A DNA stretch of 64,000 nucleotides from Monocercomonoides exilis PA203 (lineage: Eukaryota; Protista; Preaxostyla). A program made the translations under genes and the position numbers. Positions within the stretch are counted from its first letter, which is position 1. The number at the start of each line of letters is the position of its first letter. This document shows, one piece after another, positions 1,799 to 24,675 of the stretch. The notes below the pieces were generated by a model that saw only the letters and a program-made list of their open reading frames with translations, was not told where the DNA came from and searched no databases. The stretch covers positions 1-64,000 of the forward strand of contig LSRY02000047.1 of assembly GCA_001643675.2 (NCBI GenBank), read 5' to 3'.

Positions 1799-1836
1799 TA
1801 CGGAAGTTGCCCTTAATATTACTGGCAACTTCCGTA
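1799..1836 (+). promoter_or_regulatory. Rolling-circle origin hairpin 1 (strain A)
   Basis: 13-bp stem TACGGAAGTTGCC/GGCAACTTCCGTA with a 12-nt loop containing TAATATTAC (1814-1822); direct repeat ACTTCCGTAGTC x2 at 1828-1851. Confidence 0.95.
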
Positions 1837-1862
1837 GTCACTTCCGTAGTCAGCCAATTATT

Positions 1863-2282
1863 ATGGGTTGTGATCAAAATTTTTGTATGGTGAGATTTGC
1901 TTGGTTAGGTGATATTCCGGTTACAAAAGAAGCAGTGATTGAAGAATTGGATGTGATGTGGGCTCCGAGATGGACCAGAGCGTGGGAGCTACAGATGGAA
2001 AATGTTGATTGGTATATAGGTAGGGCTTTACATGTAGTAGCCAAAGCTCGAGAGGAGTTTGATAGGGTTTATTTGATAATGAAAGCACGTAATAGACGAA
2101 GGCCTAGGGCTCAGCGTAGGGTAGGCAGTGAGCGGAATCAAATAGCATCATTTCAAAGACATTGTTATCCATTAATTAAAAGAGTTTATAATTTATTTAT
2201 GCATAAACATGTTGAGATTTATAGAGCATTTAATGGTAGATGGAATGTACCTTGGCTATTTCAAGGGATACATTTTGAATAA
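1863..2282 (+). CDS. Viral ORF-X, strain A (139 aa, unknown function)
   Basis: ATG-initiated ORF; shares WAPRWTRAWxLQM, NRRRPR and FxGxWNxP motifs with the strain-B ORF at the same position. Confidence 0.8.
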   Translation: MGCDQNFCMVRFAWLGDIPVTKEAVIEELDVMWAPRWTRAWELQMENVDWYIGRALHVVAKAREEFDRVYLIMKARNRRRPRAQRRVGSERNQIASFQRHCYPLIKRVYNLFMHKHVEIYRAFNGRWNVPWLFQGIHFE

Positions 2283-2348
2283 CCATTATTTTATTTTATG
2301 TTTCTAGATATTGATCTGAAAATTCCTTTTTTTACTTTACATTTTTTC

Positions 2349-3581
2349 ATGTCGATTGTTAAATATAAACCACTACAAACATTAGGTTTTGGATCTAGAT
2401 TGCTGAAATCTTTTTATTCTCATACAACGCCACAAACTAGGCAACGTATGTTTCATGCAGCAGTTAATTTTGGTAGAAATGTAGGTTCTAGATTGTTATC
2501 TAGTGCTAGGGAATCATATAGAGCTGATCGTATTAATCGAGCCAGAAAAATTGGTGCTGATTTGTATGGTCAAGGACGTGTACAAAACTGGAAGCAGGTT
2601 AAACAGACTGGTGTAGGGAAAAAGATACATAGACGTGGACGTAGGTATAAATTTAGACTTAGACGTATGATGAAAAGGAGATTTAGGATAGGGAAAAGAA
2701 AGTATCTAAATTGGATGTATAAGAATAGACCTGCGATTTATAGATCATTTACGTCGGATACTTTTTCAGTTCAAGTTTACAATATGCCTTTTTATCAAGC
2801 TGGTACACCAGCTACTGTTTATCCAGCTAATTCTATATATTCATTTAATGTATCCAATGTGCAACCTATACCATTTTCTAATATAGATGCTGATTATATT
2901 TTATATAAACAACGATGGGAATTTTTATTTAAGTTTATTGGTAATGCTAATGCAACAAAGGATTATACTCATGCATATATTAGAGTTATATCTTTTCGTA
3001 AGTATGGATCTGCTGTAACAAATGATGTTCAAGAATCGCTTTGGTCTATGTTTAAATATCCTTATTTATTAACTTCGGGATATGTGACAGGGTTTAAATC
3101 CCGTTGGCTTAAGGAGTTTGGAATTCAATTATATTCAGATAAACTTCTTAGGGTTTCTGATGATACAAACTGGGCTACGGAATACAAAATTAATTTTTAT
3201 CCTAATATGCATACAAGATATAACAGTTCATTTGATGCTAATAGATGGTTTTATAGAATATTTATTATATGTGGTTTTGGAGTAGAAGATAAATTTGAAA
3301 ATTTATATACGAATACTCCTAATTTAACTTTACAGACTGATTATGTTCGTACTTCCTTATGGAAATTTGTGTCTGGTATGCCATTAGGTACTGGTGATAT
3401 TTCTCGGTTGACAATAACAGGGTTACCTAATAAAAATCAAAGTGTAGCCCCTAGGTTAGGGGGATTTGATGAACGGGAGGGTAGTGGTCTAAGCGGTAAT
3501 GAACCCGCGGGTGAAACAGGCGCCACCGGTTCGACCCCTACCCCCTCCTCTTCTTTTACTATTTTACATGATGATAATTAA
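2349..3581 (+). CDS. cap: Putative capsid protein, strain A (~410 aa)
   Basis: Virion-sense ORF opposite Rep; Arg/Lys-rich segment (HRRGRRYKFRLRRMMKRRFR) followed by an aromatic, beta-strand-like body; start set at MSIVK by alignment with strain B (the ORF track starts at 2298). Confidence 0.8.
   Translation: MSIVKYKPLQTLGFGSRLLKSFYSHTTPQTRQRMFHAAVNFGRNVGSRLLSSARESYRADRINRARKIGADLYGQGRVQNWKQVKQTGVGKKIHRRGRRYKFRLRRMMKRRFRIGKRKYLNWMYKNRPAIYRSFTSDTFSVQVYNMPFYQAGTPATVYPANSIYSFNVSNVQPIPFSNIDADYILYKQRWEFLFKFIGNANATKDYTHAYIRVISFRKYGSAVTNDVQESLWSMFKYPYLLTSGYVTGFKSRWLKEFGIQLYSDKLLRVSDDTNWATEYKINFYPNMHTRYNSSFDANRWFYRIFIICGFGVEDKFENLYTNTPNLTLQTDYVRTSLWKFVSGMPLGTGDISRLTITGLPNKNQSVAPRLGGFDEREGSGLSGNEPAGETGATGSTPTPSSSFTILHDDN
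3479..3543 (+). other. Conserved covarying 65-nt stem-loop in the cap 3' end (strain A copy; strain B equivalent at 6351-6415 and in every B unit)
   Basis: Arms GGGTAGTGGTC/GACCCCTACCC in A versus GGACAGTGGCG/CGCCCCTGTTC in B; same 43-nt interior and same T.C mismatch; four compensatory pair changes. Confidence 0.7.
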
Positions 3582-3674
3582 TAATTTTTTTTTTGAAAAA
3601 AACATTTCAATTATAATAAAATACGCATGTTAAACTTTACAGAGATGACTATATATAAAAATAAAATTTATAAA

Positions 3675-4637
3675 TTAAATTTGGTTAGAAAAATCTGATT
3701 CTTCTGGATTCGGTTCTGTTTCTTGTGTTTCAAATAGATTTGATGGTAGAGGAGTATTTTCATCTTCAATATCTATTGTTGTAATTCTTTCTCTTATTTG
3801 TTGTATATCTTCTGTTCTTAAGCTAGTAAATTTATTAAGCCATTCCGATTCTGGCCCAACTATGTCAGTGAAGTATACTACGTCAGCGCTGAAAACTGTA
3901 CTACCTCCTTTTACAGGTACTGTTGGATTGTACCATGGGTCGCAGATTTTTAACCATAGATTGAATGGCAAACCACAATCTGCTCTAAAGTCGTCGAATA
4001 TAGCTATCTCTTCTCCACTGTAGTTATCTATGAACGAACCTGTTTGTGGCCAATGGTAAATTCTCATACCGAATAATGTTTGCATTTCTTGAGCTCGTGT
4101 TTCAACTAATCTGGTTTTTCCTGTTCTTGCTTTTCCGTGAACCCAAAATACTTTGCGTGGTTCTTTTCTCATGCCTTGTTTTGTCCATACTTTTAGATAG
4201 GATAAATCCTTGATACCTTTTGAATGTAGGATAAATTGATCAGGATGCTCTTCAGATATTTCCATTATAGATTTACCTTCAGCTATTTTATCTGCTACTA
4301 TTTTTAGGTCTGATCTTTTACCCTGAATTGGGCAACTTCCATACTCCTCAAAATCCCCATCCTTTTTGATGTAGTCAATACATGCTTTTGCTCCTTTTTT
4401 AGGAACTTCAATATCTGCTCTTGGACACAGAGCTTTCATAGCATCGAAAGATCTAGGGTTCTCTAGCTGTATGAACACGTGCAAATGTGGTGTGCCTGTG
4501 CTTGGTGCTTTCTCCTTGCCTATTATCATATACTTGCAGCGGACATCCAGCAACGCTTGGTACTCTTCCGGTGTGAAATTATTAAGTGTTAAGAAGTATG
4601 ATCTATGTCTGTTTTGTTTTTGTTGAATTCTCGGCAT
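3675..4637 (-). CDS. rep: Rep (HUH endonuclease + SF3 helicase), B/A chimera, 320 aa
   Basis: Motifs FLTLNN, PHLHVF, YIKKD; Walker A GKARTGKT; Walker B IAIFDDF; Arg finger IRER; identical to strain B from 3954 to 4637 and divergent from 3675 to 3953. Confidence 0.95.
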   Translation of the reverse strand: MPRIQQKQNRHRSYFLTLNNFTPEEYQALLDVRCKYMIIGKEKAPSTGTPHLHVFIQLENPRSFDAMKALCPRADIEVPKKGAKACIDYIKKDGDFEEYGSCPIQGKRSDLKIVADKIAEGKSIMEISEEHPDQFILHSKGIKDLSYLKVWTKQGMRKEPRKVFWVHGKARTGKTRLVETRAQEMQTLFGMRIYHWPQTGSFIDNYSGEEIAIFDDFRADCGLPFNLWLKICDPWYNPTVPVKGGSTVFSADVVYFTDIVGPESEWLNKFTSLRTEDIQQIRERITTIDIEDENTPLPSNLFETQETEPNPEESDFSNQI

Positions 4638-4660
4638 TATATCTTCTGATCTATGGGTGA

Positions 4661-4698
4661 CACGGAAGTTGCCCTTAATATTACTGGCAACTTCCGTG
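4661..4698 (+). promoter_or_regulatory. Rolling-circle origin hairpin 2 (strain B)
   Basis: Stem CACGGAAGTTGCC/GGCAACTTCCGTG; TAATATTAC at 4676-4684; iterated GCAACTTCCGT. Confidence 0.95.
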
Positions 4699-4740: not shown

Positions 4741-5145
4741 ATGGAAGTGTTAACCGATGAAATGTGGTTTATTGATGTTCCTGTCACTTTGGAAGCATTT
4801 GAAGAAGATGTTAGTGAGAATTGGGCACCTCGCTGGACACGTGCTTGGGGTTTACAAATGAAGAATGCTATGGAATACTTAGATTTATTGCAGCGTGTTA
4901 GTGATAAAGCATGGGAGAAATTTGCTAAGCTGCATGATTGGATGGTGTTTAAGAATCGCAGACGACCTCGAGGATTACGTAAGCAAGGTTCTAAAGATAG
5001 GCAATTAGTCGCATGGAGAAAATTGTTATATAAATTTTTGAAGTCTCATTTTAATAATTATTTAAGGAATCATAATCAGATATTTTATGAATTTCATGGT
5101 GCATGGAATAATCCTTATATTTTAAGAGAAATTAATTATTATTAA
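4741..5145 (+). CDS. Viral ORF-X, strain B (134 aa from the first in-frame ATG)
   Basis: Homologous to 1863-2282; the ORF-track GTG start at 4657 runs through the origin hairpin and is unlikely. Confidence 0.75.
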   Translation: MEVLTDEMWFIDVPVTLEAFEEDVSENWAPRWTRAWGLQMKNAMEYLDLLQRVSDKAWEKFAKLHDWMVFKNRRRPRGLRKQGSKDRQLVAWRKLLYKFLKSHFNNYLRNHNQIFYEFHGAWNNPYILREINYY

Positions 5146-5211: not shown

Positions 5212-6450
5212 ATGTCTATTGTGAAGTTTACACCTGGTCAATTAACAACAGGCTTACCTAGAAAATTATTTAATACTTTTATGTCTAGGACTACTCCTCA
5301 GACTAGGGCTAGGATTTTCCATGGTGCTGTAGGGTTAGGTAGAACAGCTTTAGGTTATGTTGCTAATGCTGCTCGTACAGCCTATCGAAATGATAGATTA
5401 AATCGTTCTAGGGTTAGCTTATCTAAAATGATAGGTCAGGGAAGAGTGCAGAATTGGAAACAGATTAAGCAAACTGGAACAGGTAAAAAGATTCATAGGA
5501 GAGGAAGGCGTAGTAGATATAGAATTAGAAGGATAAAAGCTCGTAAGTATCGTATTAGAAAGAGAAAATATTTAGGCTGGCTATATAAGAATAGACCTCC
5601 AATTTATCAGTCATATCATGGTGGTGAATTTAAATTTAGTCTTTACAATATGGCTGTTTATGTAGGTGATCAAAGTGTAGAAGAGTATCCTTCTGATAGT
5701 ATATATTCATTTAGGGTTACTGGTGAAGTTCCTCCTCAGTTAGAGTCTCCTAAAGTTGATTATATTTTGTATAAGCAACGGTGGGAGTTTATAATTAATA
5801 TACAAGCTGGATCTCTTCAGCCTTCTGCTTTTACTCATGCTTATGTTAGAGTATTGGTGTTTAGAAAGTGGGGTAGTGATATAACGAACTCGTTACAAAC
5901 TAGTTTATGGTCTATGTTTAAAAATCCTGCTATTATGACTAGTGGTTATGTCACCGGTTTTAGACGTAGGTGGTGCAAAGAATTTGGAGTTCAATTATAT
6001 CAGGATAAATTGCTTAGAATCAGTGATGAGACTAATTGGACAACTGAGTTTAAGTGTAATTTCTATCCTAATATTCATTCAAGATATAACTCTACTTTTG
6101 ATCAAGATTATTGGCATTATCAGATATATCTTATAGGTGGTTATGGCCCTGAAGATAAGTTTAATAATTTATGGAATGGTTCTGGTTCTTCGGAGTTGAA
6201 TGTTAGTGTTAAATATATTAGACTTAATCAATGGAAGTATGTGTCTGGGATGCCTCTTACTGCTGGTCAGTTGGATGTATTTAAGGTTTCTGGTATCCCA
6301 GATAAAATTCAGAGCAATCAACCTCGAATCGGTGGAGTTGATGTAAATGTGGACAGTGGCGGAGAGGGAAAAGATCTGGCCAGTGAAAGCGGCGCCTCCA
6401 GTTCCGCCCCTGTTCATAACAAATCTTTTAATATTTTGCATGATGATTAA
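5212..6450 (+). CDS. cap: Putative capsid protein, strain B (412 aa)
   Basis: Arg-rich segment HRRGRRSRYRIRRIKARKYRIRKRK; colinear with strain-A Cap (shared blocks such as DYILYKQRWEF and TSGYVTGF). Confidence 0.8.
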   Translation: MSIVKFTPGQLTTGLPRKLFNTFMSRTTPQTRARIFHGAVGLGRTALGYVANAARTAYRNDRLNRSRVSLSKMIGQGRVQNWKQIKQTGTGKKIHRRGRRSRYRIRRIKARKYRIRKRKYLGWLYKNRPPIYQSYHGGEFKFSLYNMAVYVGDQSVEEYPSDSIYSFRVTGEVPPQLESPKVDYILYKQRWEFIINIQAGSLQPSAFTHAYVRVLVFRKWGSDITNSLQTSLWSMFKNPAIMTSGYVTGFRRRWCKEFGVQLYQDKLLRISDETNWTTEFKCNFYPNIHSRYNSTFDQDYWHYQIYLIGGYGPEDKFNNLWNGSGSSELNVSVKYIRLNQWKYVSGMPLTAGQLDVFKVSGIPDKIQSNQPRIGGVDVNVDSGGEGKDLASESGASSSAPVHNKSFNILHDD

Positions 6451-6540
6451 ATTTTTTATAAACATTTCATTTTAAATTAACACGCATGTTATAACTGTAC
6501 AGAAGTGACTATATAAAAAATAAAAATGAATTAAAAAGTA

Positions 6541-7497
6541 TTAATTTATTTCTTGTTCTTCGTCATTGTTAGGTTCCGTGTTTTGTGTCTCCAAGAAGTT
6601 AGAAGGTAATGGTGTTTCTTCTGATTCTATGTCAATGATTGTTACTCTTTCTCTGATTTGCATGACGTCTTCATTTCTTAAGGATTTCATTTTGTTTAGC
6701 CATTCGCTTTCTGGTCCGACGATGTCTGTGAAGTATACTACGTCAGCTATGAAAACAGTTGAACCACCCTTTACAGGTACAGTAGGGTTGTACCAAGGAT
6801 CACAAAGTTTTAGCCATAGATTGAATGGCAAACCACAATCTGCTCTAAAGTCGTCGAATATAGCTATCTCTTCTCCACTGTAGTTATCTATGAACGAACC
6901 TGTTTGTGGCCAATGGTAAATTCTCATACCGAATAATGTTTGCATTTCTTGAGCTCGTGTTTCAACTAATCTGGTTTTTCCTGTTCTTGCTTTTCCGTGA
7001 ACCCAAAATACTTTGCGTGGTTCTTTTCTCATGCCTTGTTTTGTCCATACTTTTAGATAGGATAAATCCTTGATACCTTTTGAATGTAGGATAAATTGAT
7101 CAGGATGCTCTTCAGATATTTCCATTATAGATTTACCTTCAGCTATTTTATCTGCTACTATTTTTAGGTCTGATCTTTTACCCTGAATTGGGCAACTTCC
7201 ATACTCCTCAAAATCCCCATCCTTTTTGATGTAGTCAATACATGCTTTTGCTCCTTTTTTAGGAACTTCAATATCTGCTCTTGGACACAGAGCTTTCATA
7301 GCATCGAAAGATCTAGGGTTCTCTAGCTGTATGAACACGTGCAAATGTGGTGTGCCTGTGCTTGGTGCTTTCTCCTTGCCTATTATCATATACTTGCAGC
7401 GGACATCCAGCAACGCTTGGTACTCTTCCGGTGTGAAATTATTAAGTGTTAAGAAGTATGATCTATGTCTGTTTTGTTTTTGTTGAATTCTCGGCAT
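6541..7497 (-). CDS. rep: Rep, strain B (318 aa, intact)
   Basis: RCR motifs I-III, Walker A GKARTGKT, Walker B DDF. Confidence 0.95.
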   Translation of the reverse strand: MPRIQQKQNRHRSYFLTLNNFTPEEYQALLDVRCKYMIIGKEKAPSTGTPHLHVFIQLENPRSFDAMKALCPRADIEVPKKGAKACIDYIKKDGDFEEYGSCPIQGKRSDLKIVADKIAEGKSIMEISEEHPDQFILHSKGIKDLSYLKVWTKQGMRKEPRKVFWVHGKARTGKTRLVETRAQEMQTLFGMRIYHWPQTGSFIDNYSGEEIAIFDDFRADCGLPFNLWLKLCDPWYNPTVPVKGGSTVFIADVVYFTDIVGPESEWLNKMKSLRNEDVMQIRERVTIIDIESEETPLPSNFLETQNTEPNNDEEQEIN

Positions 7498-7520
7498 TAT
7501 ATCTTCTGATCTATGGGTGA

Positions 7521-7558
7521 CACGGAAGTTGCCCTTAATATTACTGGCAACTTCCGTG
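7521..7558 (+). promoter_or_regulatory. Origin hairpin 3
   Basis: Same stem; TAATATTAC at 7536. Confidence 0.95.
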
Positions 7559-7600
7559 CAACTTCCGTGCTTCCGAAATAATTATGGGTGTGATCGATTT

Positions 7601-8005
7601 ATGGAAGTGTTAACCGATGAAATGTGGTTTATTGATGTTCCTGTCACTTTGGAAGCATTTGAAGAAGATGTTAGTGAGAATTGGGCACCTCGCTGGACAC
7701 GTGCTTGGGGTTTACAAATGAAGAATGCTATGGAATACTTAGATTTATTGCAGCGTGTTAGTGATAAAGCATGGGAGAAATTTGCTAAGCTGCATGATTG
7801 GATGGTGTTTAAGAATCGCAGACGACCTCGAGGATTACGTAAGCAAGGTTCTAAAGATAGGCAATTAGTCGCATGGAGAAAATTGTTATATAAATTTTTG
7901 AAGTCTCATTTTAATAATTATTTAAGGAATCATAATCAGATATTTTATGAATTTCATGGTGCATGGAATAATCCTTATATTTTAAGAGAAATTAATTATT
8001 ATTAA
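7601..8005 (+). CDS. Viral ORF-X, strain B
   Basis: Same protein as 4741-5145. Confidence 0.75.
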   Translation: MEVLTDEMWFIDVPVTLEAFEEDVSENWAPRWTRAWGLQMKNAMEYLDLLQRVSDKAWEKFAKLHDWMVFKNRRRPRGLRKQGSKDRQLVAWRKLLYKFLKSHFNNYLRNHNQIFYEFHGAWNNPYILREINYY

Positions 8006-8071
8006 CCATAATTTTATTTTATATGTCTTGATTTTGATCATGAAATTCCTTCTTTTCCACATCAGTATTTT

Positions 8072-9310
8072 ATGTCTATTGTGAAGTTTACACCTGGTCA
8101 ATTAACAACAGGCTTACCTAGAAAATTATTTAATACTTTTATGTCTAGGACTACTCCTCAGACTAGGGCTAGGATTTTCCATGGTGCTGTAGGGTTAGGT
8201 AGAACAGCTTTAGGTTATGTTGCTAATGCTGCTCGTACAGCCTATCGAAATGATAGATTAAATCGTTCTAGGGTTAGCTTATCTAAAATGATAGGTCAGG
8301 GAAGAGTGCAGAATTGGAAACAGATTAAGCAAACTGGAACAGGTAAAAAGATTCATAGGAGAGGAAGGCGTAGTAGATATAGAATTAGAAGGATAAAAGC
8401 TCGTAAGTATCGTATTAGAAAGAGAAAATATTTAGGCTGGCTATATAAGAATAGACCTCCAATTTATCAGTCATATCATGGTGGTGAATTTAAATTTAGT
8501 CTTTACAATATGGCTGTTTATGTAGGTGATCAAAGTGTAGAAGAGTATCCTTCTGATAGTATATATTCATTTAGGGTTACTGGTGAAGTTCCTCCTCAGT
8601 TAGAGTCTCCTAAAGTTGATTATATTTTGTATAAGCAACGGTGGGAGTTTATAATTAATATACAAGCTGGATCTCTTCAGCCTTCTGCTTTTACTCATGC
8701 TTATGTTAGAGTATTGGTGTTTAGAAAGTGGGGTAGTGATATAACGAACTCGTTACAAACTAGTTTATGGTCTATGTTTAAAAATCCTGCTATTATGACT
8801 AGTGGTTATGTCACCGGTTTTAGACGTAGGTGGTGCAAAGAATTTGGAGTTCAATTATATCAGGATAAATTGCTTAGAATCAGTGATGAGACTAATTGGA
8901 CAACTGAGTTTAAGTGTAATTTCTATCCTAATATTCATTCAAGATATAACTCTACTTTTGATCAAGATTATTGGCATTATCAGATATATCTTATAGGTGG
9001 TTATGGCCCTGAAGATAAGTTTAATAATTTATGGAATGGTTCTGGTTCTTCGGAGTTGAATGTTAGTGTTAAATATATTAGACTTAATCAATGGAAGTAT
9101 GTGTCTGGGATGCCTCTTACTGCTGGTCAGTTGGATGTATTTAAGGTTTCTGGTATCCCAGATAAAATTCAGAGCAATCAACCTCGAATCGGTGGAGTTG
9201 ATGTAAATGTGGACAGTGGCGGAGAGGGAAAAGATCTGGCCAGTGAAAGCGGCGCCTCCAGTTCCGCCCCTGTTCATAACAAATCTTTTAATATTTTGCA
9301 TGATGATTAA
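8072..9310 (+). CDS. cap: Putative capsid protein, strain B
   Basis: Same protein as 5212-6450. Confidence 0.8.
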   Translation: MSIVKFTPGQLTTGLPRKLFNTFMSRTTPQTRARIFHGAVGLGRTALGYVANAARTAYRNDRLNRSRVSLSKMIGQGRVQNWKQIKQTGTGKKIHRRGRRSRYRIRRIKARKYRIRKRKYLGWLYKNRPPIYQSYHGGEFKFSLYNMAVYVGDQSVEEYPSDSIYSFRVTGEVPPQLESPKVDYILYKQRWEFIINIQAGSLQPSAFTHAYVRVLVFRKWGSDITNSLQTSLWSMFKNPAIMTSGYVTGFRRRWCKEFGVQLYQDKLLRISDETNWTTEFKCNFYPNIHSRYNSTFDQDYWHYQIYLIGGYGPEDKFNNLWNGSGSSELNVSVKYIRLNQWKYVSGMPLTAGQLDVFKVSGIPDKIQSNQPRIGGVDVNVDSGGEGKDLASESGASSSAPVHNKSFNILHDD

Positions 9311-9400
9311 ATTTTTTATAAACATTTCATTTTAAATTAACACGCATGTTATAACTGTACAGAAGTGACTATATAAAAAATAAAAATGAATTAAAAAGTA

Positions 9401-10355
9401 TTAATTTATTTCTTGTTCTTCGTCATTGTTAGGTTCCGTGTTTTGTGTCTCCAAGAAGTTAGAAGGTAATGGTGTTTCTTCTGATTCTATGTCAATGATT
9501 GTTACTCTTTCTCTGATTTGCATGACGTCTTCATTTCTTAAGGATTTCATTTTGTTTAGCCATTCGCTTTCTGGTCCGACGATGTCTGTGAAGTATACTA
9601 CGTCAGCTATGAAAACAGTTGAACCACCCTTTACAGGTACAGTAGGGTTGTACCAAGGATCACAAAGTTTTAGCCATAGATTGAATGGCAAACCACAATC
9701 TGCTCTAAAGTCGTCGAATATAGCTATCTCTTCTCCACTGTAGTTATCTATGAACGAACCTGTTTGTGGCCAATGGTAAATTCTCATACCGAATAATGTT
9801 TGCATTTCTTGAGCTCGTGTTTCAACTAATCTGGTTTTTCCTGTTCTTGCTTTTCCGTGAACCCAAAATACTTTGCGTGGTTCTTTTCTCATGCCTTGTT
9901 TTGTCCATACTTTTAGATAGGATAAATCCTTGATACCTTTTGAATGTAGGATAAATTGATCAGGATGCTCTTCAGATATTTCCATTATAGATTTACCTTC
10001 AGCTATTTTATCTGCTACTATTTTTAGGTCTGATCTTTTACCCTGAATTGGGCAACTTCCATACTCCTCAAAATCCCCATCCTTTTGATGTAGTCAATAC
10101 ATGCTTTTGCTCCTTTTTAGGAACTTCAATATCTGCTCTTGGACACAGAGCTTTCATAGCATCGAAAGATCTAGGGTTCTCTAGCTGTATGAACACGTGC
10201 AAATGTGGTGTGCCTGTGCTTGGTGCTTTCTCCTTGCCTATTATCATATACTTGCAGCGGACATCCAGCAACGCTTGGTACTCTTCCGGTGTGAAATTAT
10301 TAAGTGTTAAGAAGTATGATCTATGTCTGTTTTGTTTTTGTTGAATTCTCGGCAT
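9401..10355 (-). pseudogene. rep: Rep, strain B, with two 1-nt deletions in T-runs (possibly sequencing errors)
   Basis: T5>T4 near 10083 and T6>T5 near 10114 split the ORF; otherwise matches the intact Rep. Confidence 0.7.
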
Positions 10356-10378
10356 TATATCTTCTGATCTATGGGTGA

Positions 10379-10416
10379 CACGGAAGTTGCCCTTAATATT
10401 ACTGGCAACTTCCGTG
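10379..10416 (+). promoter_or_regulatory. Origin hairpin 4
   Basis: Same stem; TAATATTAC at 10394. Confidence 0.95.
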
Positions 10417-10458
10417 CAACTTCCGTGCTTCCGAAATAATTATGGGTGTGATCGATTT

Positions 10459-10863
10459 ATGGAAGTGTTAACCGATGAAATGTGGTTTATTGATGTTCCT
10501 GTCACTTTGGAAGCATTTGAAGAAGATGTTAGTGAGAATTGGGCACCTCGCTGGACACGTGCTTGGGGTTTACAAATGAAGAATGCTATGGAATACTTAG
10601 ATTTATTGCAGCGTGTTAGTGATAAAGCATGGGAGAAATTTGCTAAGCTGCATGATTGGATGGTGTTTAAGAATCGCAGACGACCTCGAGGATTACGTAA
10701 GCAAGGTTCTAAAGATAGGCAATTAGTCGCATGGAGAAAATTGTTATATAAATTTTTGAAGTCTCATTTTAATAATTATTTAAGGAATCATAATCAGATA
10801 TTTTATGAATTTCATGGTGCATGGAATAATCCTTATATTTTAAGAGAAATTAATTATTATTAA
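10459..10863 (+). CDS. Viral ORF-X, strain B
   Basis: Same protein as 4741-5145. Confidence 0.75.
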   Translation: MEVLTDEMWFIDVPVTLEAFEEDVSENWAPRWTRAWGLQMKNAMEYLDLLQRVSDKAWEKFAKLHDWMVFKNRRRPRGLRKQGSKDRQLVAWRKLLYKFLKSHFNNYLRNHNQIFYEFHGAWNNPYILREINYY

Positions 10864-10929
10864 CCATAATTTTATTTTATATGTCTTGATTTTGATCATG
10901 AAATTCCTTCTTTTCCACATCAGTATTTT

Positions 10930-12168
10930 ATGTCTATTGTGAAGTTTACACCTGGTCAATTAACAACAGGCTTACCTAGAAAATTATTTAATACTTTTAT
11001 GTCTAGGACTACTCCTCAGACTAGGGCTAGGATTTTCCATGGTGCTGTAGGGTTAGGTAGAACAGCTTTAGGTTATGTTGCTAATGCTGCTCGTACAGCC
11101 TATCGAAATGATAGATTAAATCGTTCTAGGGTTAGCTTATCTAAAATGATAGGTCAGGGAAGAGTGCAGAATTGGAAACAGATTAAGCAAACTGGAACAG
11201 GTAAAAAGATTCATAGGAGAGGAAGGCGTAGTAGATATAGAATTAGAAGGATAAAAGCTCGTAAGTATCGTATTAGAAAGAGAAAATATTTAGGCTGGCT
11301 ATATAAGAATAGACCTCCAATTTATCAGTCATATCATGGTGGTGAATTTAAATTTAGTCTTTACAATATGGCTGTTTATGTAGGTGATCAAAGTGTAGAA
11401 GAGTATCCTTCTGATAGTATATATTCATTTAGGGTTACTGGTGAAGTTCCTCCTCAGTTAGAGTCTCCTAAAGTTGATTATATTTTGTATAAGCAACGGT
11501 GGGAGTTTATAATTAATATACAAGCTGGATCTCTTCAGCCTTCTGCTTTTACTCATGCTTATGTTAGAGTATTGGTGTTTAGAAAGTGGGGTAGTGATAT
11601 AACGAACTCGTTACAAACTAGTTTATGGTCTATGTTTAAAAATCCTGCTATTATGACTAGTGGTTATGTCACCGGTTTTAGACGTAGGTGGTGCAAAGAA
11701 TTTGGAGTTCAATTATATCAGGATAAATTGCTTAGAATCAGTGATGAGACTAATTGGACAACTGAGTTTAAGTGTAATTTCTATCCTAATATTCATTCAA
11801 GATATAACTCTACTTTTGATCAAGATTATTGGCATTATCAGATATATCTTATAGGTGGTTATGGCCCTGAAGATAAGTTTAATAATTTATGGAATGGTTC
11901 TGGTTCTTCGGAGTTGAATGTTAGTGTTAAATATATTAGACTTAATCAATGGAAGTATGTGTCTGGGATGCCTCTTACTGCTGGTCAGTTGGATGTATTT
12001 AAGGTTTCTGGTATCCCAGATAAAATTCAGAGCAATCAACCTCGAATCGGTGGAGTTGATGTAAATGTGGACAGTGGCGGAGAGGGAAAAGATCTGGCCA
12101 GTGAAAGCGGCGCCTCCAGTTCCGCCCCTGTTCATAACAAATCTTTTAATATTTTGCATGATGATTAA
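10930..12168 (+). CDS. cap: Putative capsid protein, strain B
   Basis: Same protein as 5212-6450. Confidence 0.8.
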   Translation: MSIVKFTPGQLTTGLPRKLFNTFMSRTTPQTRARIFHGAVGLGRTALGYVANAARTAYRNDRLNRSRVSLSKMIGQGRVQNWKQIKQTGTGKKIHRRGRRSRYRIRRIKARKYRIRKRKYLGWLYKNRPPIYQSYHGGEFKFSLYNMAVYVGDQSVEEYPSDSIYSFRVTGEVPPQLESPKVDYILYKQRWEFIINIQAGSLQPSAFTHAYVRVLVFRKWGSDITNSLQTSLWSMFKNPAIMTSGYVTGFRRRWCKEFGVQLYQDKLLRISDETNWTTEFKCNFYPNIHSRYNSTFDQDYWHYQIYLIGGYGPEDKFNNLWNGSGSSELNVSVKYIRLNQWKYVSGMPLTAGQLDVFKVSGIPDKIQSNQPRIGGVDVNVDSGGEGKDLASESGASSSAPVHNKSFNILHDD

Positions 12169-12258
12169 ATTTTTTATAAACATTTCATTTTAAATTAACA
12201 CGCATGTTATAACTGTACAGAAGTGACTATATAAAAAATAAAAATGAATTAAAAAGTA

Positions 12259-13215
12259 TTAATTTATTTCTTGTTCTTCGTCATTGTTAGGTTCCGTGTT
12301 TTGTGTCTCCAAGAAGTTAGAAGGTAATGGTGTTTCTTCTGATTCTATGTCAATGATTGTTACTCTTTCTCTGATTTGCATGACGTCTTCATTTCTTAAG
12401 GATTTCATTTTGTTTAGCCATTCGCTTTCTGGTCCGACGATGTCTGTGAAGTATACTACGTCAGCTATGAAAACAGTTGAACCACCCTTTACAGGTACAG
12501 TAGGGTTGTACCAAGGATCACAAAGTTTTAGCCATAGATTGAATGGCAAACCACAATCTGCTCTAAAGTCGTCGAATATAGCTATCTCTTCTCCACTGTA
12601 GTTATCTATGAACGAACCTGTTTGTGGCCAATGGTAAATTCTCATACCGAATAATGTTTGCATTTCTTGAGCTCGTGTTTCAACTAATCTGGTTTTTCCT
12701 GTTCTTGCTTTTCCGTGAACCCAAAATACTTTGCGTGGTTCTTTTCTCATGCCTTGTTTTGTCCATACTTTTAGATAGGATAAATCCTTGATACCTTTTG
12801 AATGTAGGATAAATTGATCAGGATGCTCTTCAGATATTTCCATTATAGATTTACCTTCAGCTATTTTATCTGCTACTATTTTTAGGTCTGATCTTTTACC
12901 CTGAATTGGGCAACTTCCATACTCCTCAAAATCCCCATCCTTTTTGATGTAGTCAATACATGCTTTTGCTCCTTTTTTAGGAACTTCAATATCTGCTCTT
13001 GGACACAGAGCTTTCATAGCATCGAAAGATCTAGGGTTCTCTAGCTGTATGAACACGTGCAAATGTGGTGTGCCTGTGCTTGGTGCTTTCTCCTTGCCTA
13101 TTATCATATACTTGCAGCGGACATCCAGCAACGCTTGGTACTCTTCCGGTGTGAAATTATTAAGTGTTAAGAAGTATGATCTATGTCTGTTTTGTTTTTG
13201 TTGAATTCTCGGCAT
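12259..13215 (-). CDS. rep: Rep, strain B (intact)
   Basis: Same protein as 6541-7497. Confidence 0.95.
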   Translation of the reverse strand: MPRIQQKQNRHRSYFLTLNNFTPEEYQALLDVRCKYMIIGKEKAPSTGTPHLHVFIQLENPRSFDAMKALCPRADIEVPKKGAKACIDYIKKDGDFEEYGSCPIQGKRSDLKIVADKIAEGKSIMEISEEHPDQFILHSKGIKDLSYLKVWTKQGMRKEPRKVFWVHGKARTGKTRLVETRAQEMQTLFGMRIYHWPQTGSFIDNYSGEEIAIFDDFRADCGLPFNLWLKLCDPWYNPTVPVKGGSTVFIADVVYFTDIVGPESEWLNKMKSLRNEDVMQIRERVTIIDIESEETPLPSNFLETQNTEPNNDEEQEIN

Positions 13216-13238
13216 TATATCTTCTGATCTATGGGTGA

Positions 13239-13276
13239 CACGGAAGTTGCCCTTAATATTACTGGCAACTTCCGTG
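13239..13276 (+). promoter_or_regulatory. Origin hairpin 5
   Basis: Same stem; TAATATTAC at 13254. Confidence 0.95.
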
Positions 13277-13318
13277 CAACTTCCGTGCTTCCGAAATAAT
13301 TATGGGTGTGATCGATTT

Positions 13319-13723
13319 ATGGAAGTGTTAACCGATGAAATGTGGTTTATTGATGTTCCTGTCACTTTGGAAGCATTTGAAGAAGATGTTAGTGAGAATT
13401 GGGCACCTCGCTGGACACGTGCTTGGGGTTTACAAATGAAGAATGCTATGGAATACTTAGATTTATTGCAGCGTGTTAGTGATAAAGCATGGGAGAAATT
13501 TGCTAAGCTGCATGATTGGATGGTGTTTAAGAATCGCAGACGACCTCGAGGATTACGTAAGCAAGGTTCTAAAGATAGGCAATTAGTCGCATGGAGAAAA
13601 TTGTTATATAAATTTTTGAAGTCTCATTTTAATAATTATTTAAGGAATCATAATCAGATATTTTATGAATTTCATGGTGCATGGAATAATCCTTATATTT
13701 TAAGAGAAATTAATTATTATTAA
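13319..13723 (+). CDS. Viral ORF-X, strain B
   Basis: Same protein as 4741-5145. Confidence 0.75.
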   Translation: MEVLTDEMWFIDVPVTLEAFEEDVSENWAPRWTRAWGLQMKNAMEYLDLLQRVSDKAWEKFAKLHDWMVFKNRRRPRGLRKQGSKDRQLVAWRKLLYKFLKSHFNNYLRNHNQIFYEFHGAWNNPYILREINYY

Positions 13724-13789
13724 CCATAATTTTATTTTATATGTCTTGATTTTGATCATGAAATTCCTTCTTTTCCACATCAGTATTTT

Positions 13790-15028
13790 ATGTCTATTGT
13801 GAAGTTTACACCTGGTCAATTAACAACAGGCTTACCTAGAAAATTATTTAATACTTTTATGTCTAGGACTACTCCTCAGACTAGGGCTAGGATTTTCCAT
13901 GGTGCTGTAGGGTTAGGTAGAACAGCTTTAGGTTATGTTGCTAATGCTGCTCGTACAGCCTATCGAAATGATAGATTAAATCGTTCTAGGGTTAGCTTAT
14001 CTAAAATGATAGGTCAGGGAAGAGTGCAGAATTGGAAACAGATTAAGCAAACTGGAACAGGTAAAAAGATTCATAGGAGAGGAAGGCGTAGTAGATATAG
14101 AATTAGAAGGATAAAAGCTCGTAAGTATCGTATTAGAAAGAGAAAATATTTAGGCTGGCTATATAAGAATAGACCTCCAATTTATCAGTCATATCATGGT
14201 GGTGAATTTAAATTTAGTCTTTACAATATGGCTGTTTATGTAGGTGATCAAAGTGTAGAAGAGTATCCTTCTGATAGTATATATTCATTTAGGGTTACTG
14301 GTGAAGTTCCTCCTCAGTTAGAGTCTCCTAAAGTTGATTATATTTTGTATAAGCAACGGTGGGAGTTTATAATTAATATACAAGCTGGATCTCTTCAGCC
14401 TTCTGCTTTTACTCATGCTTATGTTAGAGTATTGGTGTTTAGAAAGTGGGGTAGTGATATAACGAACTCGTTACAAACTAGTTTATGGTCTATGTTTAAA
14501 AATCCTGCTATTATGACTAGTGGTTATGTCACCGGTTTTAGACGTAGGTGGTGCAAAGAATTTGGAGTTCAATTATATCAGGATAAATTGCTTAGAATCA
14601 GTGATGAGACTAATTGGACAACTGAGTTTAAGTGTAATTTCTATCCTAATATTCATTCAAGATATAACTCTACTTTTGATCAAGATTATTGGCATTATCA
14701 GATATATCTTATAGGTGGTTATGGCCCTGAAGATAAGTTTAATAATTTATGGAATGGTTCTGGTTCTTCGGAGTTGAATGTTAGTGTTAAATATATTAGA
14801 CTTAATCAATGGAAGTATGTGTCTGGGATGCCTCTTACTGCTGGTCAGTTGGATGTATTTAAGGTTTCTGGTATCCCAGATAAAATTCAGAGCAATCAAC
14901 CTCGAATCGGTGGAGTTGATGTAAATGTGGACAGTGGCGGAGAGGGAAAAGATCTGGCCAGTGAAAGCGGCGCCTCCAGTTCCGCCCCTGTTCATAACAA
15001 ATCTTTTAATATTTTGCATGATGATTAA
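13790..15028 (+). CDS. cap: Putative capsid protein, strain B
   Basis: Same protein as 5212-6450. Confidence 0.8.
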   Translation: MSIVKFTPGQLTTGLPRKLFNTFMSRTTPQTRARIFHGAVGLGRTALGYVANAARTAYRNDRLNRSRVSLSKMIGQGRVQNWKQIKQTGTGKKIHRRGRRSRYRIRRIKARKYRIRKRKYLGWLYKNRPPIYQSYHGGEFKFSLYNMAVYVGDQSVEEYPSDSIYSFRVTGEVPPQLESPKVDYILYKQRWEFIINIQAGSLQPSAFTHAYVRVLVFRKWGSDITNSLQTSLWSMFKNPAIMTSGYVTGFRRRWCKEFGVQLYQDKLLRISDETNWTTEFKCNFYPNIHSRYNSTFDQDYWHYQIYLIGGYGPEDKFNNLWNGSGSSELNVSVKYIRLNQWKYVSGMPLTAGQLDVFKVSGIPDKIQSNQPRIGGVDVNVDSGGEGKDLASESGASSSAPVHNKSFNILHDD

Positions 15029-15118
15029 ATTTTTTATAAACATTTCATTTTAAATTAACACGCATGTTATAACTGTACAGAAGTGACTATATAAAAAATA
15101 AAAATGAATTAAAAAGTA

Positions 15119-16074
15119 TTAATTTATTTCTTGTTCTTCGTCATTGTTAGGTTCCGTGTTTTGTGTCTCCAAGAAGTTAGAAGGTAATGGTGTTTCTTCT
15201 GATTCTATGTCAATGATTGTTACTCTTTCTCTGATTTGCATGACGTCTTCATTTCTTAAGGATTTCATTTTGTTTAGCCATTCGCTTTCTGGTCCGACGA
15301 TGTCTGTGAAGTATACTACGTCAGCTATGAAAACAGTTGAACCACCCTTTACAGGTACAGTAGGGTTGTACCAAGGATCACAAAGTTTTAGCCATAGATT
15401 GAATGGCAAACCACAATCTGCTCTAAAGTCGTCGAATATAGCTATCTCTTCTCCACTGTAGTTATCTATGAACGAACCTGTTTGTGGCCAATGGTAAATT
15501 CTCATACCGAATAATGTTTGCATTTCTTGAGCTCGTGTTTCAACTAATCTGGTTTTTCCTGTTCTTGCTTTTCCGTGAACCCAAAATACTTTGCGTGGTT
15601 CTTTTCTCATGCCTTGTTTTGTCCATACTTTTAGATAGGATAAATCCTTGATACCTTTTGAATGTAGGATAAATTGATCAGGATGCTCTTCAGATATTTC
15701 CATTATAGATTTACCTTCAGCTATTTTATCTGCTACTATTTTTAGGTCTGATCTTTTACCCTGAATTGGGCAACTTCCATACTCCTCAAAATCCCCATCC
15801 TTTTGATGTAGTCAATACATGCTTTTGCTCCTTTTTTAGGAACTTCAATATCTGCTCTTGGACACAGAGCTTTCATAGCATCGAAAGATCTAGGGTTCTC
15901 TAGCTGTATGAACACGTGCAAATGTGGTGTGCCTGTGCTTGGTGCTTTCTCCTTGCCTATTATCATATACTTGCAGCGGACATCCAGCAACGCTTGGTAC
16001 TCTTCCGGTGTGAAATTATTAAGTGTTAAGAAGTATGATCTATGTCTGTTTTGTTTTTGTTGAATTCTCGGCAT
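15119..16074 (-). pseudogene. rep: Rep, strain B, with one 1-nt deletion in a T-run (possibly a sequencing error)
   Basis: T5>T4 near 15801 shifts the frame after DYIK. Confidence 0.7.
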
Positions 16075-16097
16075 TATATTTTCTGTTTTATGGGTGA

Positions 16098-16135
16098 CAC
16101 GGAAGTTGCCCTTAATATTACTGGCAACTTCCGTG
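16098..16135 (+). promoter_or_regulatory. Origin hairpin 6
   Basis: Same stem; TAATATTAC at 16113. Confidence 0.95.
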
Positions 16136-16177
16136 CAACTTCCGTGCTTCCGAAATAATTATGGGTGTGATCGATTT

Positions 16178-16582
16178 ATGGAAGTGTTAACCGATGAAAT
16201 GTGGTTTATTGATGTTCCTGTCACTTTGGAAGCATTTGAAGAAGATGTTAGTGAGAATTGGGCACCTCGCTGGACACGTGCTTGGGGTTTACAAATGAAG
16301 AATGCTATGGAATACTTAGATTTATTGCAGCGTGTTAGTGATAAAGCATGGGAGAAATTTGCTAAGCTGCATGATTGGATGGTGTTTAAGAATCGCAGAC
16401 GACCTCGAGGATTACGTAAGCAAGGTTCTAAAGATAGGCAATTAGTCGCATGGAGAAAATTGTTATATAAATTTTTGAAGTCTCATTTTAATAATTATTT
16501 AAGGAATCATAATCAGATATTTTATGAATTTCATGGTGCATGGAATAATCCTTATATTTTAAGAGAAATTAATTATTATTAA
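16178..16582 (+). CDS. Viral ORF-X, strain B
   Basis: Same protein as 4741-5145. Confidence 0.75.
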   Translation: MEVLTDEMWFIDVPVTLEAFEEDVSENWAPRWTRAWGLQMKNAMEYLDLLQRVSDKAWEKFAKLHDWMVFKNRRRPRGLRKQGSKDRQLVAWRKLLYKFLKSHFNNYLRNHNQIFYEFHGAWNNPYILREINYY

Positions 16583-16648
16583 CCATAATTTTATTTTATA
16601 TGTCTTGATTTTGATCATGAAATTCCTTCTTTTCCACATCAGTATTTT

Positions 16649-17887
16649 ATGTCTATTGTGAAGTTTACACCTGGTCAATTAACAACAGGCTTACCTAGAA
16701 AATTATTTAATACTTTTATGTCTAGGACTACTCCTCAGACTAGGGCTAGGATTTTCCATGGTGCTGTAGGGTTAGGTAGAACAGCTTTAGGTTATGTTGC
16801 TAATGCTGCTCGTACAGCCTATCGAAATGATAGATTAAATCGTTCTAGGGTTAGCTTATCTAAAATGATAGGTCAGGGAAGAGTGCAGAATTGGAAACAG
16901 ATTAAGCAAACTGGAACAGGTAAAAAGATTCATAGGAGAGGAAGGCGTAGTAGATATAGAATTAGAAGGATAAAAGCTCGTAAGTATCGTATTAGAAAGA
17001 GAAAATATTTAGGCTGGCTATATAAGAATAGACCTCCAATTTATCAGTCATATCATGGTGGTGAATTTAAATTTAGTCTTTACAATATGGCTGTTTATGT
17101 AGGTGATCAAAGTGTAGAAGAGTATCCTTCTGATAGTATATATTCATTTAGGGTTACTGGTGAAGTTCCTCCTCAGTTAGAGTCTCCTAAAGTTGATTAT
17201 ATTTTGTATAAGCAACGGTGGGAGTTTATAATTAATATACAAGCTGGATCTCTTCAGCCTTCTGCTTTTACTCATGCTTATGTTAGAGTATTGGTGTTTA
17301 GAAAGTGGGGTAGTGATATAACGAACTCGTTACAAACTAGTTTATGGTCTATGTTTAAAAATCCTGCTATTATGACTAGTGGTTATGTCACCGGTTTTAG
17401 ACGTAGGTGGTGCAAAGAATTTGGAGTTCAATTATATCAGGATAAATTGCTTAGAATCAGTGATGAGACTAATTGGACAACTGAGTTTAAGTGTAATTTC
17501 TATCCTAATATTCATTCAAGATATAACTCTACTTTTGATCAAGATTATTGGCATTATCAGATATATCTTATAGGTGGTTATGGCCCTGAAGATAAGTTTA
17601 ATAATTTATGGAATGGTTCTGGTTCTTCGGAGTTGAATGTTAGTGTTAAATATATTAGACTTAATCAATGGAAGTATGTGTCTGGGATGCCTCTTACTGC
17701 TGGTCAGTTGGATGTATTTAAGGTTTCTGGTATCCCAGATAAAATTCAGAGCAATCAACCTCGAATCGGTGGAGTTGATGTAAATGTGGACAGTGGCGGA
17801 GAGGGAAAAGATCTGGCCAGTGAAAGCGGCGCCTCCAGTTCCGCCCCTGTTCATAACAAATCTTTTAATATTTTGCATGATGATTAA
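16649..17887 (+). CDS. cap: Putative capsid protein, strain B
   Basis: Same protein as 5212-6450. Confidence 0.8.
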   Translation: MSIVKFTPGQLTTGLPRKLFNTFMSRTTPQTRARIFHGAVGLGRTALGYVANAARTAYRNDRLNRSRVSLSKMIGQGRVQNWKQIKQTGTGKKIHRRGRRSRYRIRRIKARKYRIRKRKYLGWLYKNRPPIYQSYHGGEFKFSLYNMAVYVGDQSVEEYPSDSIYSFRVTGEVPPQLESPKVDYILYKQRWEFIINIQAGSLQPSAFTHAYVRVLVFRKWGSDITNSLQTSLWSMFKNPAIMTSGYVTGFRRRWCKEFGVQLYQDKLLRISDETNWTTEFKCNFYPNIHSRYNSTFDQDYWHYQIYLIGGYGPEDKFNNLWNGSGSSELNVSVKYIRLNQWKYVSGMPLTAGQLDVFKVSGIPDKIQSNQPRIGGVDVNVDSGGEGKDLASESGASSSAPVHNKSFNILHDD

Positions 17888-17977
17888 ATTTTTTATAAAC
17901 ATTTCATTTTAAATTAACACGCATGTTATAACTGTACAGAAGTGACTATATAAAAAATAAAAATGAATTAAAAAGTA

Positions 17978-18932
17978 TTAATTTATTTCTTGTTCTTCGT
18001 CATTGTTAGGTTCCGTGTTTTGTGTCTCCAAGAAGTTAGAAGGTAATGGTGTTTCTTCTGATTCTATGTCAATGATTGTTACTCTTTCTCTGATTTGCAT
18101 GACGTCTTCATTTCTTAAGGATTTCATTTTGTTTAGCCATTCGCTTTCTGGTCCGACGATGTCTGTGAAGTATACTACGTCAGCTATGAAAACAGTTGAA
18201 CCACCCTTTACAGGTACAGTAGGGTTGTACCAAGGATCACAAAGTTTTAGCCATAGATTGAATGGCAAACCACAATCTGCTCTAAAGTCGTCGAATATAG
18301 CTATCTCTTCTCCACTGTAGTTATCTATGAACGAACCTGTTTGTGGCCAATGGTAAATTCTCATACCGAATAATGTTTGCATTTCTTGAGCTCGTGTTTC
18401 AACTAATCTGGTTTTTCCTGTTCTTGCTTTTCCGTGAACCCAAAATACTTTGCGTGGTTCTTTTCTCATGCCTTGTTTTGTCCATACTTTTAGATAGGAT
18501 AAATCCTTGATACCTTTTGAATGTAGGATAAATTGATCAGGATGCTCTTCAGATATTTCCATTATAGATTTACCTTCAGCTATTTTATCTGCTACTATTT
18601 TTAGGTCTGATCTTTTACCCTGAATTGGGCAACTTCCATACTCCTCAAAATCCCCATCCTTTTGATGTAGTCAATACATGCTTTTGCTCCTTTTTAGGAA
18701 CTTCAATATCTGCTCTTGGACACAGAGCTTTCATAGCATCGAAAGATCTAGGGTTCTCTAGCTGTATGAACACGTGCAAATGTGGTGTGCCTGTGCTTGG
18801 TGCTTTCTCCTTGCCTATTATCATATACTTGCAGCGGACATCCAGCAACGCTTGGTACTCTTCCGGTGTGAAATTATTAAGTGTTAAGAAGTATGATCTA
18901 TGTCTGTTTTGTTTTTGTTGAATTCTCGGCAT
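17978..18932 (-). pseudogene. rep: Rep, strain B, with two 1-nt deletions in T-runs (possibly sequencing errors)
   Basis: Same two homopolymer deletions as the 9401-10355 copy. Confidence 0.7.
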
Positions 18933-18955
18933 TATATCTTCTGATCTATGGGTGA

Positions 18956-18993
18956 CACGGAAGTTGCCCTTAATATTACTGGCAACTTCCGTG
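18956..18993 (+). promoter_or_regulatory. Origin hairpin 7
   Basis: Same stem; TAATATTAC at 18971. Confidence 0.95.
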
Positions 18994-19035
18994 CAACTTC
19001 CGTGCTTCCGAAATAATTATGGGTGTGATCGATTT

Positions 19036-19440
19036 ATGGAAGTGTTAACCGATGAAATGTGGTTTATTGATGTTCCTGTCACTTTGGAAGCATTTGAAGA
19101 AGATGTTAGTGAGAATTGGGCACCTCGCTGGACACGTGCTTGGGGTTTACAAATGAAGAATGCTATGGAATACTTAGATTTATTGCAGCGTGTTAGTGAT
19201 AAAGCATGGGAGAAATTTGCTAAGCTGCATGATTGGATGGTGTTTAAGAATCGCAGACGACCTCGAGGATTACGTAAGCAAGGTTCTAAAGATAGGCAAT
19301 TAGTCGCATGGAGAAAATTGTTATATAAATTTTTGAAGTCTCATTTTAATAATTATTTAAGGAATCATAATCAGATATTTTATGAATTTCATGGTGCATG
19401 GAATAATCCTTATATTTTAAGAGAAATTAATTATTATTAA
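19036..19440 (+). CDS. Viral ORF-X, strain B
   Basis: Same protein as 4741-5145. Confidence 0.75.
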   Translation: MEVLTDEMWFIDVPVTLEAFEEDVSENWAPRWTRAWGLQMKNAMEYLDLLQRVSDKAWEKFAKLHDWMVFKNRRRPRGLRKQGSKDRQLVAWRKLLYKFLKSHFNNYLRNHNQIFYEFHGAWNNPYILREINYY

Positions 19441-19506
19441 CCATAATTTTATTTTATATGTCTTGATTTTGATCATGAAATTCCTTCTTTTCCACATCAG
19501 TATTTT

Positions 19507-20745: not shown

Positions 20746-20835
20746 ATTTTTTATAAACATTTCATTTTAAATTAACACGCATGTTATAACTGTACAGAAG
20801 TGACTATATAAAAAATAAAAATGAATTAAAAAGTA

Positions 20836-21792: not shown

Positions 21793-21815
21793 TATATTTT
21801 CTGTTTTATGGGTGA

Positions 21816-21853
21816 CACGGAAGTTGCCCTTAATATTACTGGCAACTTCCGTG
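21816..21853 (+). promoter_or_regulatory. Origin hairpin 8
   Basis: Same stem; TAATATTAC at 21831. Confidence 0.95.
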
Positions 21854-21895
21854 CAACTTCCGTGCTTCCGAAATAATTATGGGTGTGATCGATTT

Positions 21896-22300: not shown

Positions 22301-22365
22301 CCATAATTTTATTTTATATGTCTTGATTTTGATCATGAAATTCCTTCTTTCCACATCAGTATTTT

Positions 22366-23605: not shown

Positions 23606-23695
23606 ATTTTTTATAAACATTTCATTTTAAATTAACACGCATGTTATAACTGTACAGAAGTGACTATATAAAAAATAAAAATGAATTAAAAAGTA

Positions 23696-24652: not shown

Positions 24653-24675
24653 TATATTTTCTGTTTTATGGGTGA

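Follow-up and report, generated by a model that had tools for sequence, protein, structure and literature searches.

A possible tRNA-derived Pol III RNA gene nested in the capsid frame of a CRESS-DNA virus array in Monocercomonoides exilis

Introduction

Why should the 3′ end of a viral capsid gene, where it encodes disordered protein, hold a GC-rich hairpin whose pairing outlives changes in its sequence? CRESS viruses are treated as a Rep, a capsid and an origin hairpin. The hairpin lies in the window analyzed here, the first 64,000 nucleotides of contig LSRY02000047.1 of the oxymonad Monocercomonoides exilis PA203. The initial annotation read it as a selected ssDNA or RNA structure. We argue, at a probability of about one half, that the element is a tRNA-derived gene for a rod-shaped RNA of ~80 nt that would be transcribed by Pol III and is nested in the capsid frame.

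Results

Virus array and host

A telomere tract (about 1-1440) opens the window, and a tandem array of CRESS-DNA virus genomes (1814-24699, + strand) adjoins it. The array comprises one unit A (1814-4675) and seven near-identical units B that are ~75% identical to unit A, with nine TAATATTAC origins as bounds. Each unit encodes a 134-139 aa ORF and the capsid on the + strand and Rep on the - strand; the Rep of unit A (3675-4637, - strand) combines an HUH endonuclease with an SF3 helicase. Over window positions 1-24740, whole CRESS genomes of at least two strains follow one another head-to-tail, with the replication origin as the point of junction, and the telomere repeats are entered by a partial third Rep (1384-1776). 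The Reps of A (3675-4637) and B (6541-7497) are 95% identical, with the partial third Rep more distant, whereas the capsids of A and B share 53%, a contrast that suggests recombination between capsid and Rep. In some B copies (7537-24691) the Rep or capsid frames are broken by differences of one or two bases, which may be long-read assembly errors or decay.

The array capsids match the M. exilis proteins MONOS_16681 and MONOS_18112 at NCBI, and their other relatives are Banfec virus 4 and 5, Sigmofec virus UA08Rod_11492 and three Logan proteins. Related capsid copies are integrated on at least seven M. exilis scaffolds, several of them as multiple copies. These relationships suggest that Banfec virus 4 and 5 and Sigmofec UA08Rod_11492 have an oxymonad host, a statement that we found in no paper; the Banfec viruses are reportedly those of Hess et al. 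2023. Nor did we find a published description of this unclassified protist virus lineage, or, in a search that took in few subscription papers, a paper joining Monocercomonoides with CRESS or endogenous viruses; a further search returned a paper on another protist. The words viral, virus and CRESS occur 0 times in the main text of a host-genome paper.

Capsid gene A occupies 2349-3581 on the + strand, in an ORF open from 2298, and capsid gene B 5212-6450 on the same strand. The predicted structure of the capsid core is a jelly roll, closest to the capsids of STNV and geminiviruses, and it is followed by a disordered tail (residues 353-410, pLDDT < 50), part of which the element encodes. In strain A, 38 bases separate the end of the element from the end of the capsid stop codon. 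Behind the disordered linker, nearly all capsids carry a C-terminal I-L-H-D-D motif (3561-3578), with a counterpart in tail-less capsids, that is possibly a real protein signal. Upstream of the capsid, the 134-139 aa ORF (1863-2282, 4741-5145) has no Pfam match; host gene models and the annotations of Banfec 4 and 5 fuse it with the capsid, which suggests that it is the N-terminal exon of a spliced capsid. In the small intergenic region that follows the capsid (3582-3674, 6451-6540), the block ACGCATGTTA...ACAGA...TGACTATATA is kept in strains A and B and is a candidate minus-strand priming site, polyadenylation signal or TATA-like element.

A stem maintained by compensatory changes

The rod hairpin of strain A lies at 3479-3543 on the + strand, with arms at 3479-3497 and 3525-3543, 16 of 19 positions paired, and room for extension to about 3475-3549. 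Its counterpart in strain B (6351-6415, + strand) likewise pairs 16 of 19 positions, two of them as G·T, and recurs in identical copies at 9211, 12069, 14929, 17788, 20646 and 23506, so that strain B is one sequence in seven identical copies and not seven data points. As first described, the two 65-mers align without gaps (41/65 identical) and differ by four double-sided swaps, at pairs 3-63, 4-62, 10-56 and 11-55, along with a change from G-C to G·T at pair 2-64 and a common T·C mismatch at 7-59. The helix is larger than first noted, with 19 positions, a fifth double swap at 19-47 and a second G·T. The island is GC-rich as claimed (0.63 versus 0.35-0.36 for the units). The claim of poor protein conservation stands in part: A and B agree at 41% of the residues in the element-encoded peptide and at 54% in the rest of the capsid, but the peptide is recognizably conserved in 11 of 13 aligned capsids.

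The element is the best jointly pairable helix across the whole A/B capsid alignment, with 84% of positions paired at the true register versus 37-55% at slid registers. No shuffle matched the helix when codon columns of the whole gene (0/60), local codon columns (0/5000) or local base columns (0/5000) were permuted; synonymous recoding that left both proteins unchanged did so 6 times in 5000 at each of two GC3 settings. In a scan with a step of 5, the element was also the lowest-energy 75-nt window of units A and B, both as RNA and as DNA, with DNA folding z-scores of only -0.75 to -2.4.

A third strain, F, was reconstructed from the database proteins P0032 and P0031, which translate the same stretch in two frames and together fix every base of the element, provided that the two copies are otherwise identical. 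F has 43 of 65 bases in common with A and 38 with B, and 33 of 65 are invariant in all three. Loss of pairing in further homologues had been named as the observation that would count against a structure; F retained the pairing, with 16 of 19 pairs at the register pre-set by A and B and the T·C kept. Synonymous recoding equalled this pairing 223 and 241 times in 100,000, and the stem together with a 10-nt palindrome in the loop 18 and 7 times. Counts of G·T wobbles in A, B and F are 0, 2 and 4, and those of A·C are 0, 0 and 0. The stem in three strains and the direction of the wobbles uphold the earlier suggestion of a selected + strand structure. A result against the Pol III reading is that the strain A RNA folds better as the minus strand (-38.0 versus -30.4 kcal/mol).

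A contig from a fourth strain, obtained when three of four sequencing runs were aligned to B, fits B only at 6367-6418 (42/52) and nowhere else in 6200-6600. Its loose ends, which translate to the tail of P0006, hold by eye the same outer 5′ arm, TGGCTCA at the A-box position discussed below and a T-run at +11; the inner pairs 9-57 and 10-56 are, also by eye, broken. For nine other capsid tails read in the register of the element, the protein alone makes pairing certain at 27 positions and rules it out at 8. Of 11 registers, this one alone gave an excess of pairing (1/1000 column shuffles). Across these nine, pair 3-63 is G-C, A-T or T·G in six and broken in P0003, P0004 and P0011. The tail counts exclude the tail-less P0025/P0026 and the fragments P0010, P0019 and P0028; P0002/P0005 duplicate A/B, P0001 is nearly identical to A in the element stretch, and P0033-P0040 looked unrelated (4 of 8 viewed). 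Because the strains are related, mostly coming from one host genome, and the box tests below were framed after seeing A and B, the strain counts are not independent.

Wider searches found no DNA relatives of the capsid in IMG/VR or JGI metagenomes. A Rep scan returned 47 loci at only 27-42% identity, and 0 of 56 fetched loci had a capsid match. Two loci with repeated phage-type matches from a scan for the element-core pattern, and seven from a scan for the origin pattern, none with a Rep or capsid match, were set aside as chance. Phage blastn gave only short matches (E 3-10, mostly tail genes). A search of sequencing runs returned no RNA data set carrying the sequence, which bears neither way on expression.

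Loop palindromes and internal motifs

The loop carries a self-complementary 8-mer in strain A (CCCGCGGG, 3504-3511, + strand; a 10-mer with 3503 and 3512) and another in strain B (CTGGCCAG, 6376-6383, + strand), and the palindrome of strain F (CCACGTGG) is a third, different self-complementary sequence. The palindromic property is thus common to A, B and F despite their differing sequences, and it is preserved through the non-synonymous swaps PAG, LAS and PRG. Duplexes of the 14-mer loops reach -22.9 and -15.7 kcal/mol; the cofold dimer energies include no kissing-loop model and partly reflect arm exchange. The initial annotation reported the palindrome, GTGAAA and GGCGCC in both strains, and all are indeed common to A and B, but GTGAAA is absent from F. 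GGCGCC (3519-3524, + strand; 6391-6396 in B) is invariant in A, B and F, a second palindrome held constant at synonymous sites in three strains of an AT-rich genome.

Several known motifs were tried against the element and rejected. A hammerhead ribozyme fails on the absence of C3, G5 and U16.1 and on a GAAA that is not kept in F, a K-turn or SECIS core, which needs tandem sheared GA pairs, on a GA at 35-36 that varies in F, and GTGAAA as an anticodon loop on its loss in F and on the failure of the cloverleaf. An Rfam search, proposed in the initial annotation, returned no family at the gathering threshold (best 24 bits versus 82, for mir-1908, a generic hairpin).

Fixed bases follow tRNA positions and Pol III boxes

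We number element positions as in class I tRNAs and score the 20 (semi)invariant positions of standard tRNA numbering. At class I spacing, A holds 18 of these 20, B 17 and F 18, and the total of 53 of 60 compares with a maximum of 47 in shuffled columns with free offset and strand (0/3000). Cloverleaf arms do not form (acceptor 2-4/7 pairs, D 1-2/4, anticodon 3/5, T 2-4/5) and U33 is absent in A, B and F, so the element is not a tRNA gene; ARAGORN found no tRNA in the element, and Rfam scans gave no tRNA match.

The bases that are fixed include those of the internal Pol III promoter, which we scored with A- and B-box matrices from PMC12498455. In the 5′ arm, TRGYNNA...GG is present in A, B and F. 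The A-box-like TGGTCTAAGCGG of strain A (3485-3496, + strand), with tRNA bases T8, G10, A14, G18 and G19, fits this consensus and scores only -0.7 bits, while the A-box TGGCGGAGAGGG of strain B (6357-6368, + strand) scores 9.7 bits, a value matched by 43 of 20,000 shuffles. Strain F scores 8.4 bits, but 5,709-18,271 of 100,000 recodings do as well, so this A-box adds little once the peptide is given. A14 is retained under four different codons, for Leu, Gly, Gly and Ser.

In the 3′ arm, the B-box GGTTCGACCCC of strain A (3528-3538, + strand) scores 14.6 bits, the best of unit A on either strand, and places G53 44 bases after T8; 16 of 20,000 shuffles match this score. Shuffling of columns gave an exact B-box in A along with TRGYNNA in both rows 3 times in 200,000, in a test framed after inspection. 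Against the B-box consensus GTTCRANNC, F scores 9.3 bits and the degenerate AGTTCCGCCCC of B (6400-6410, + strand; C at 57, G at 58 in place of A58) 0.3 bits, and the B locus ranks fifth among paired A- and B-boxes in unit B. GTTC and C61 are invariant in A, B and F, and R57 is broken in two of the three strains: position 57 is G in A, C in B and T in F, tracking its pairing partner and not the consensus. Nine of 11 tails have Thr, Asn or Ile at the codon that holds A58.

Stem pairs 8, 9, 12, 14 and 15 are invariant on the box side only, as is expected if promoter and stem share bases. The T·C mismatch kept by all three strains places T8 opposite C61, although conserved Ser and Pro residues would fix it too. 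The first T-run after the stem, TTTT at +11 (3554-3557 in A and 6426-6429 in B, + strand), would be the Pol III terminator. It recurs at +11 in F and, by eye, in the fourth strain, and no T-run of at least 4 interrupts the body. This evidence is weak because TTTT occurs in 14-15% of 14-base windows; here it falls on two codons for Ser-Phe or Asn-Phe, which P0003 and P0007 do not have. Against transcription by Pol III, six of 11 tails permit, from the protein alone, a B-box of at best 6.3-11.0 bits, and P0003 allows no A-box at the ungapped register.

Gain or loss of the segment

Two distant capsids are without ~30-32 codons of the element segment and keep both flanks. By eye, the distance from the PR motif to I-[VI]-x-D-[DE] is 5 residues in P0025, 3 in P0026/P0029 and 35 in A, and the extra 30-32 codons fall in 3456-3560, spanning the predicted transcript (3475-3557). 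P0026 is a gene prediction whose short flank match could be chance. In an unrooted tree built from 12 rows, a 90/87 branch sets the tail-less capsids apart from the others, and the branch of P0026 is long; a single gain or a single loss would therefore be enough. Together with the disorder of residues 353-410, their absence of the segment agrees with the earlier proposal that the G/S-rich tail is a by-product of the structure.

Discussion

Proposed RNA and its competitors

The predicted transcript of strain A covers ~83 nt (3475-3557, + strand), with a putative start and a fold of -29.9 kcal/mol. Host TFIIIC would bind the A- and B-box on the double-stranded replicative form, and Pol III would start about 10 bases before T8 and stop at the T-run. 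The loop palindromes of two RNA copies would probably pair into a dimer, the 8-mer being too short-looped to fold on itself. The role of the RNA is the least certain step and is drawn from analogy: it might act as a nuclear replication cofactor like BocaSR or as a structured-RNA decoy like VA RNA. The G/S-rich peptide would be the tolerated translation of an in-frame insert. A fuller history, which we offer more tentatively, is that an oxymonad-infecting CRESS lineage acquired a tRNA gene of its host, placed in frame at the C-terminus of the capsid, and kept its internal Pol III promoter while the cloverleaf became a rod with a dimerization loop, to serve today as a VA- or BocaSR-like RNA.

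The same tRNA-derived relic might instead act within the 3′ end of the capsid mRNA, in stability, export, localization or dimerization through the palindrome, with no transcription by Pol III. The G·T wobbles, which favor + strand RNA, would suit this reading, as would the proximity to the capsid stop codon (38 bases to its end in A), the behavior of position 57, which obeys pairing over the B-box, and the loss of the B-box in B. Left unexplained would be the fixed GTTC, T8, A14 and G18G19, whose partners vary or are mismatched, and the constant offset of the T-run across four strains, and we regard an mRNA structure as unlikely.

A virion-sense ssDNA hairpin, acting as a complementary-strand priming site or packaging signal beside the small intergenic region, was the leading idea of the initial annotation. 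We have demoted it, since the four G·T in F suit RNA over DNA and the invariant bases are those of tRNA and Pol III promoter positions, a signature that would here be coincidence. The element is the lowest-energy DNA window of both units, adjoins the small intergenic region and sits on the TAATATTAC-bearing strand of a virus with a geminivirus-like capsid fold, and primers of ~80 nt near potential stem-loops are described for mastreviruses and babuviruses (PMC10653810). Yet its DNA z-scores are modest, and the DNA fold of F (-10.9 kcal/mol) is near the -9 to -10 of the next-best A and B windows. Known sites of this kind are non-coding, a separate conserved block lies inside the intergenic region itself, and two relatives' capsids are without the segment. 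A DNA site is, to our minds, similarly doubtful.

We give far less credence to the boxes being a TFIIIC site on dsDNA only, one that would separate the transcripts of capsid and Rep, which converge, as a boundary or barrier, with the hairpin secondary. Unit A's best B-box does lie here, between converging genes, but stem and palindrome co-vary, which a dsDNA binding site would not need, and B is without a good B-box. That a conserved Gly/Ser/Pro peptide with three Gly-X-Y triplets created a GC island with accidental pairing is the least credible explanation and already largely refuted: conservation of the peptide does extend to 11 of 13 capsids and similar triplets draw phage tail-fiber DNA matches, but with proteins fixed the A/B helix arises in only 6 of 5000 recodings and the F helix in about 230 of 100,000, and the palindrome survives its non-synonymous swaps.

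Significance and comparison with known systems

If the Pol III reading is true, a circular Rep-encoding ssDNA virus has a Pol III non-coding RNA, and a Pol III unit of tRNA shape within the coding sequence of a capsid tail would show how such RNAs arise from tRNA genes. The host is cultured and its genome carries several strains, which makes the idea directly testable. Even if untranscribed, the element is a covarying cis-element in an unclassified protist virus lineage.

One formal match is a class I tRNA gene, with 17-18 of 20 (semi)invariants at standard spacing; the element differs by its lost cloverleaf and by having no U33. In vault RNAs, the boxes lie in the closing stem. Vault RNAs also resemble the element in their 80-140 nt, internal A- and B-boxes and likely relation to tRNA (PMC7916137). 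They are cellular, unlike this viral element, for which Rfam gave no vault, Y, VA, miRNA or ribozyme family match at threshold.

The Pol III pre-miRNAs of BLV (PMC4267658, PMC12498455) are likewise compact hairpins that carry the A-box in their 5′ arm, end at a terminator and have degenerate boxes. Their B-box follows the terminator, whereas the element has its B-box within the 3′ arm; its loop of 27 nt and its interrupted stem are not pre-miRNA-like. The primer sites of the mastrevirus SIR and babuvirus CR-M match the element in their ~80-nt scale, nearby stem-loop and position by the small intergenic region; they are non-coding, and the accessible part of PMC10653810 mentions no Pol III boxes, while the element is coding.

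In a literature search on Pol III RNAs of ssDNA viruses that took in few subscription papers, we found BocaSR and herpesvirus cases and no CRESS-virus Pol III RNA. Adenovirus VA RNAs and EBV EBERs (PMC4378190) are like the predicted RNA in being viral, transcribed by Pol III and highly structured with a 3′ U-tract; unlike it, they belong to large dsDNA animal viruses and have known protein targets, and VA RNA is about 160 nt long. BocaSR of human bocavirus 1 is a 140-nt Pol III RNA from the 3′ end of an ssDNA virus genome that acts as a replication cofactor, and it is termed the first Pol III RNA among polymerase-less small DNA viruses, circoviruses included (PMC11194592). BocaSR comes from a non-coding region of a linear parvovirus and has demonstrated expression and function, whereas the element described here is a candidate known from its sequence, of ~80 nt, set within the capsid frame of a circular protist CRESS virus.
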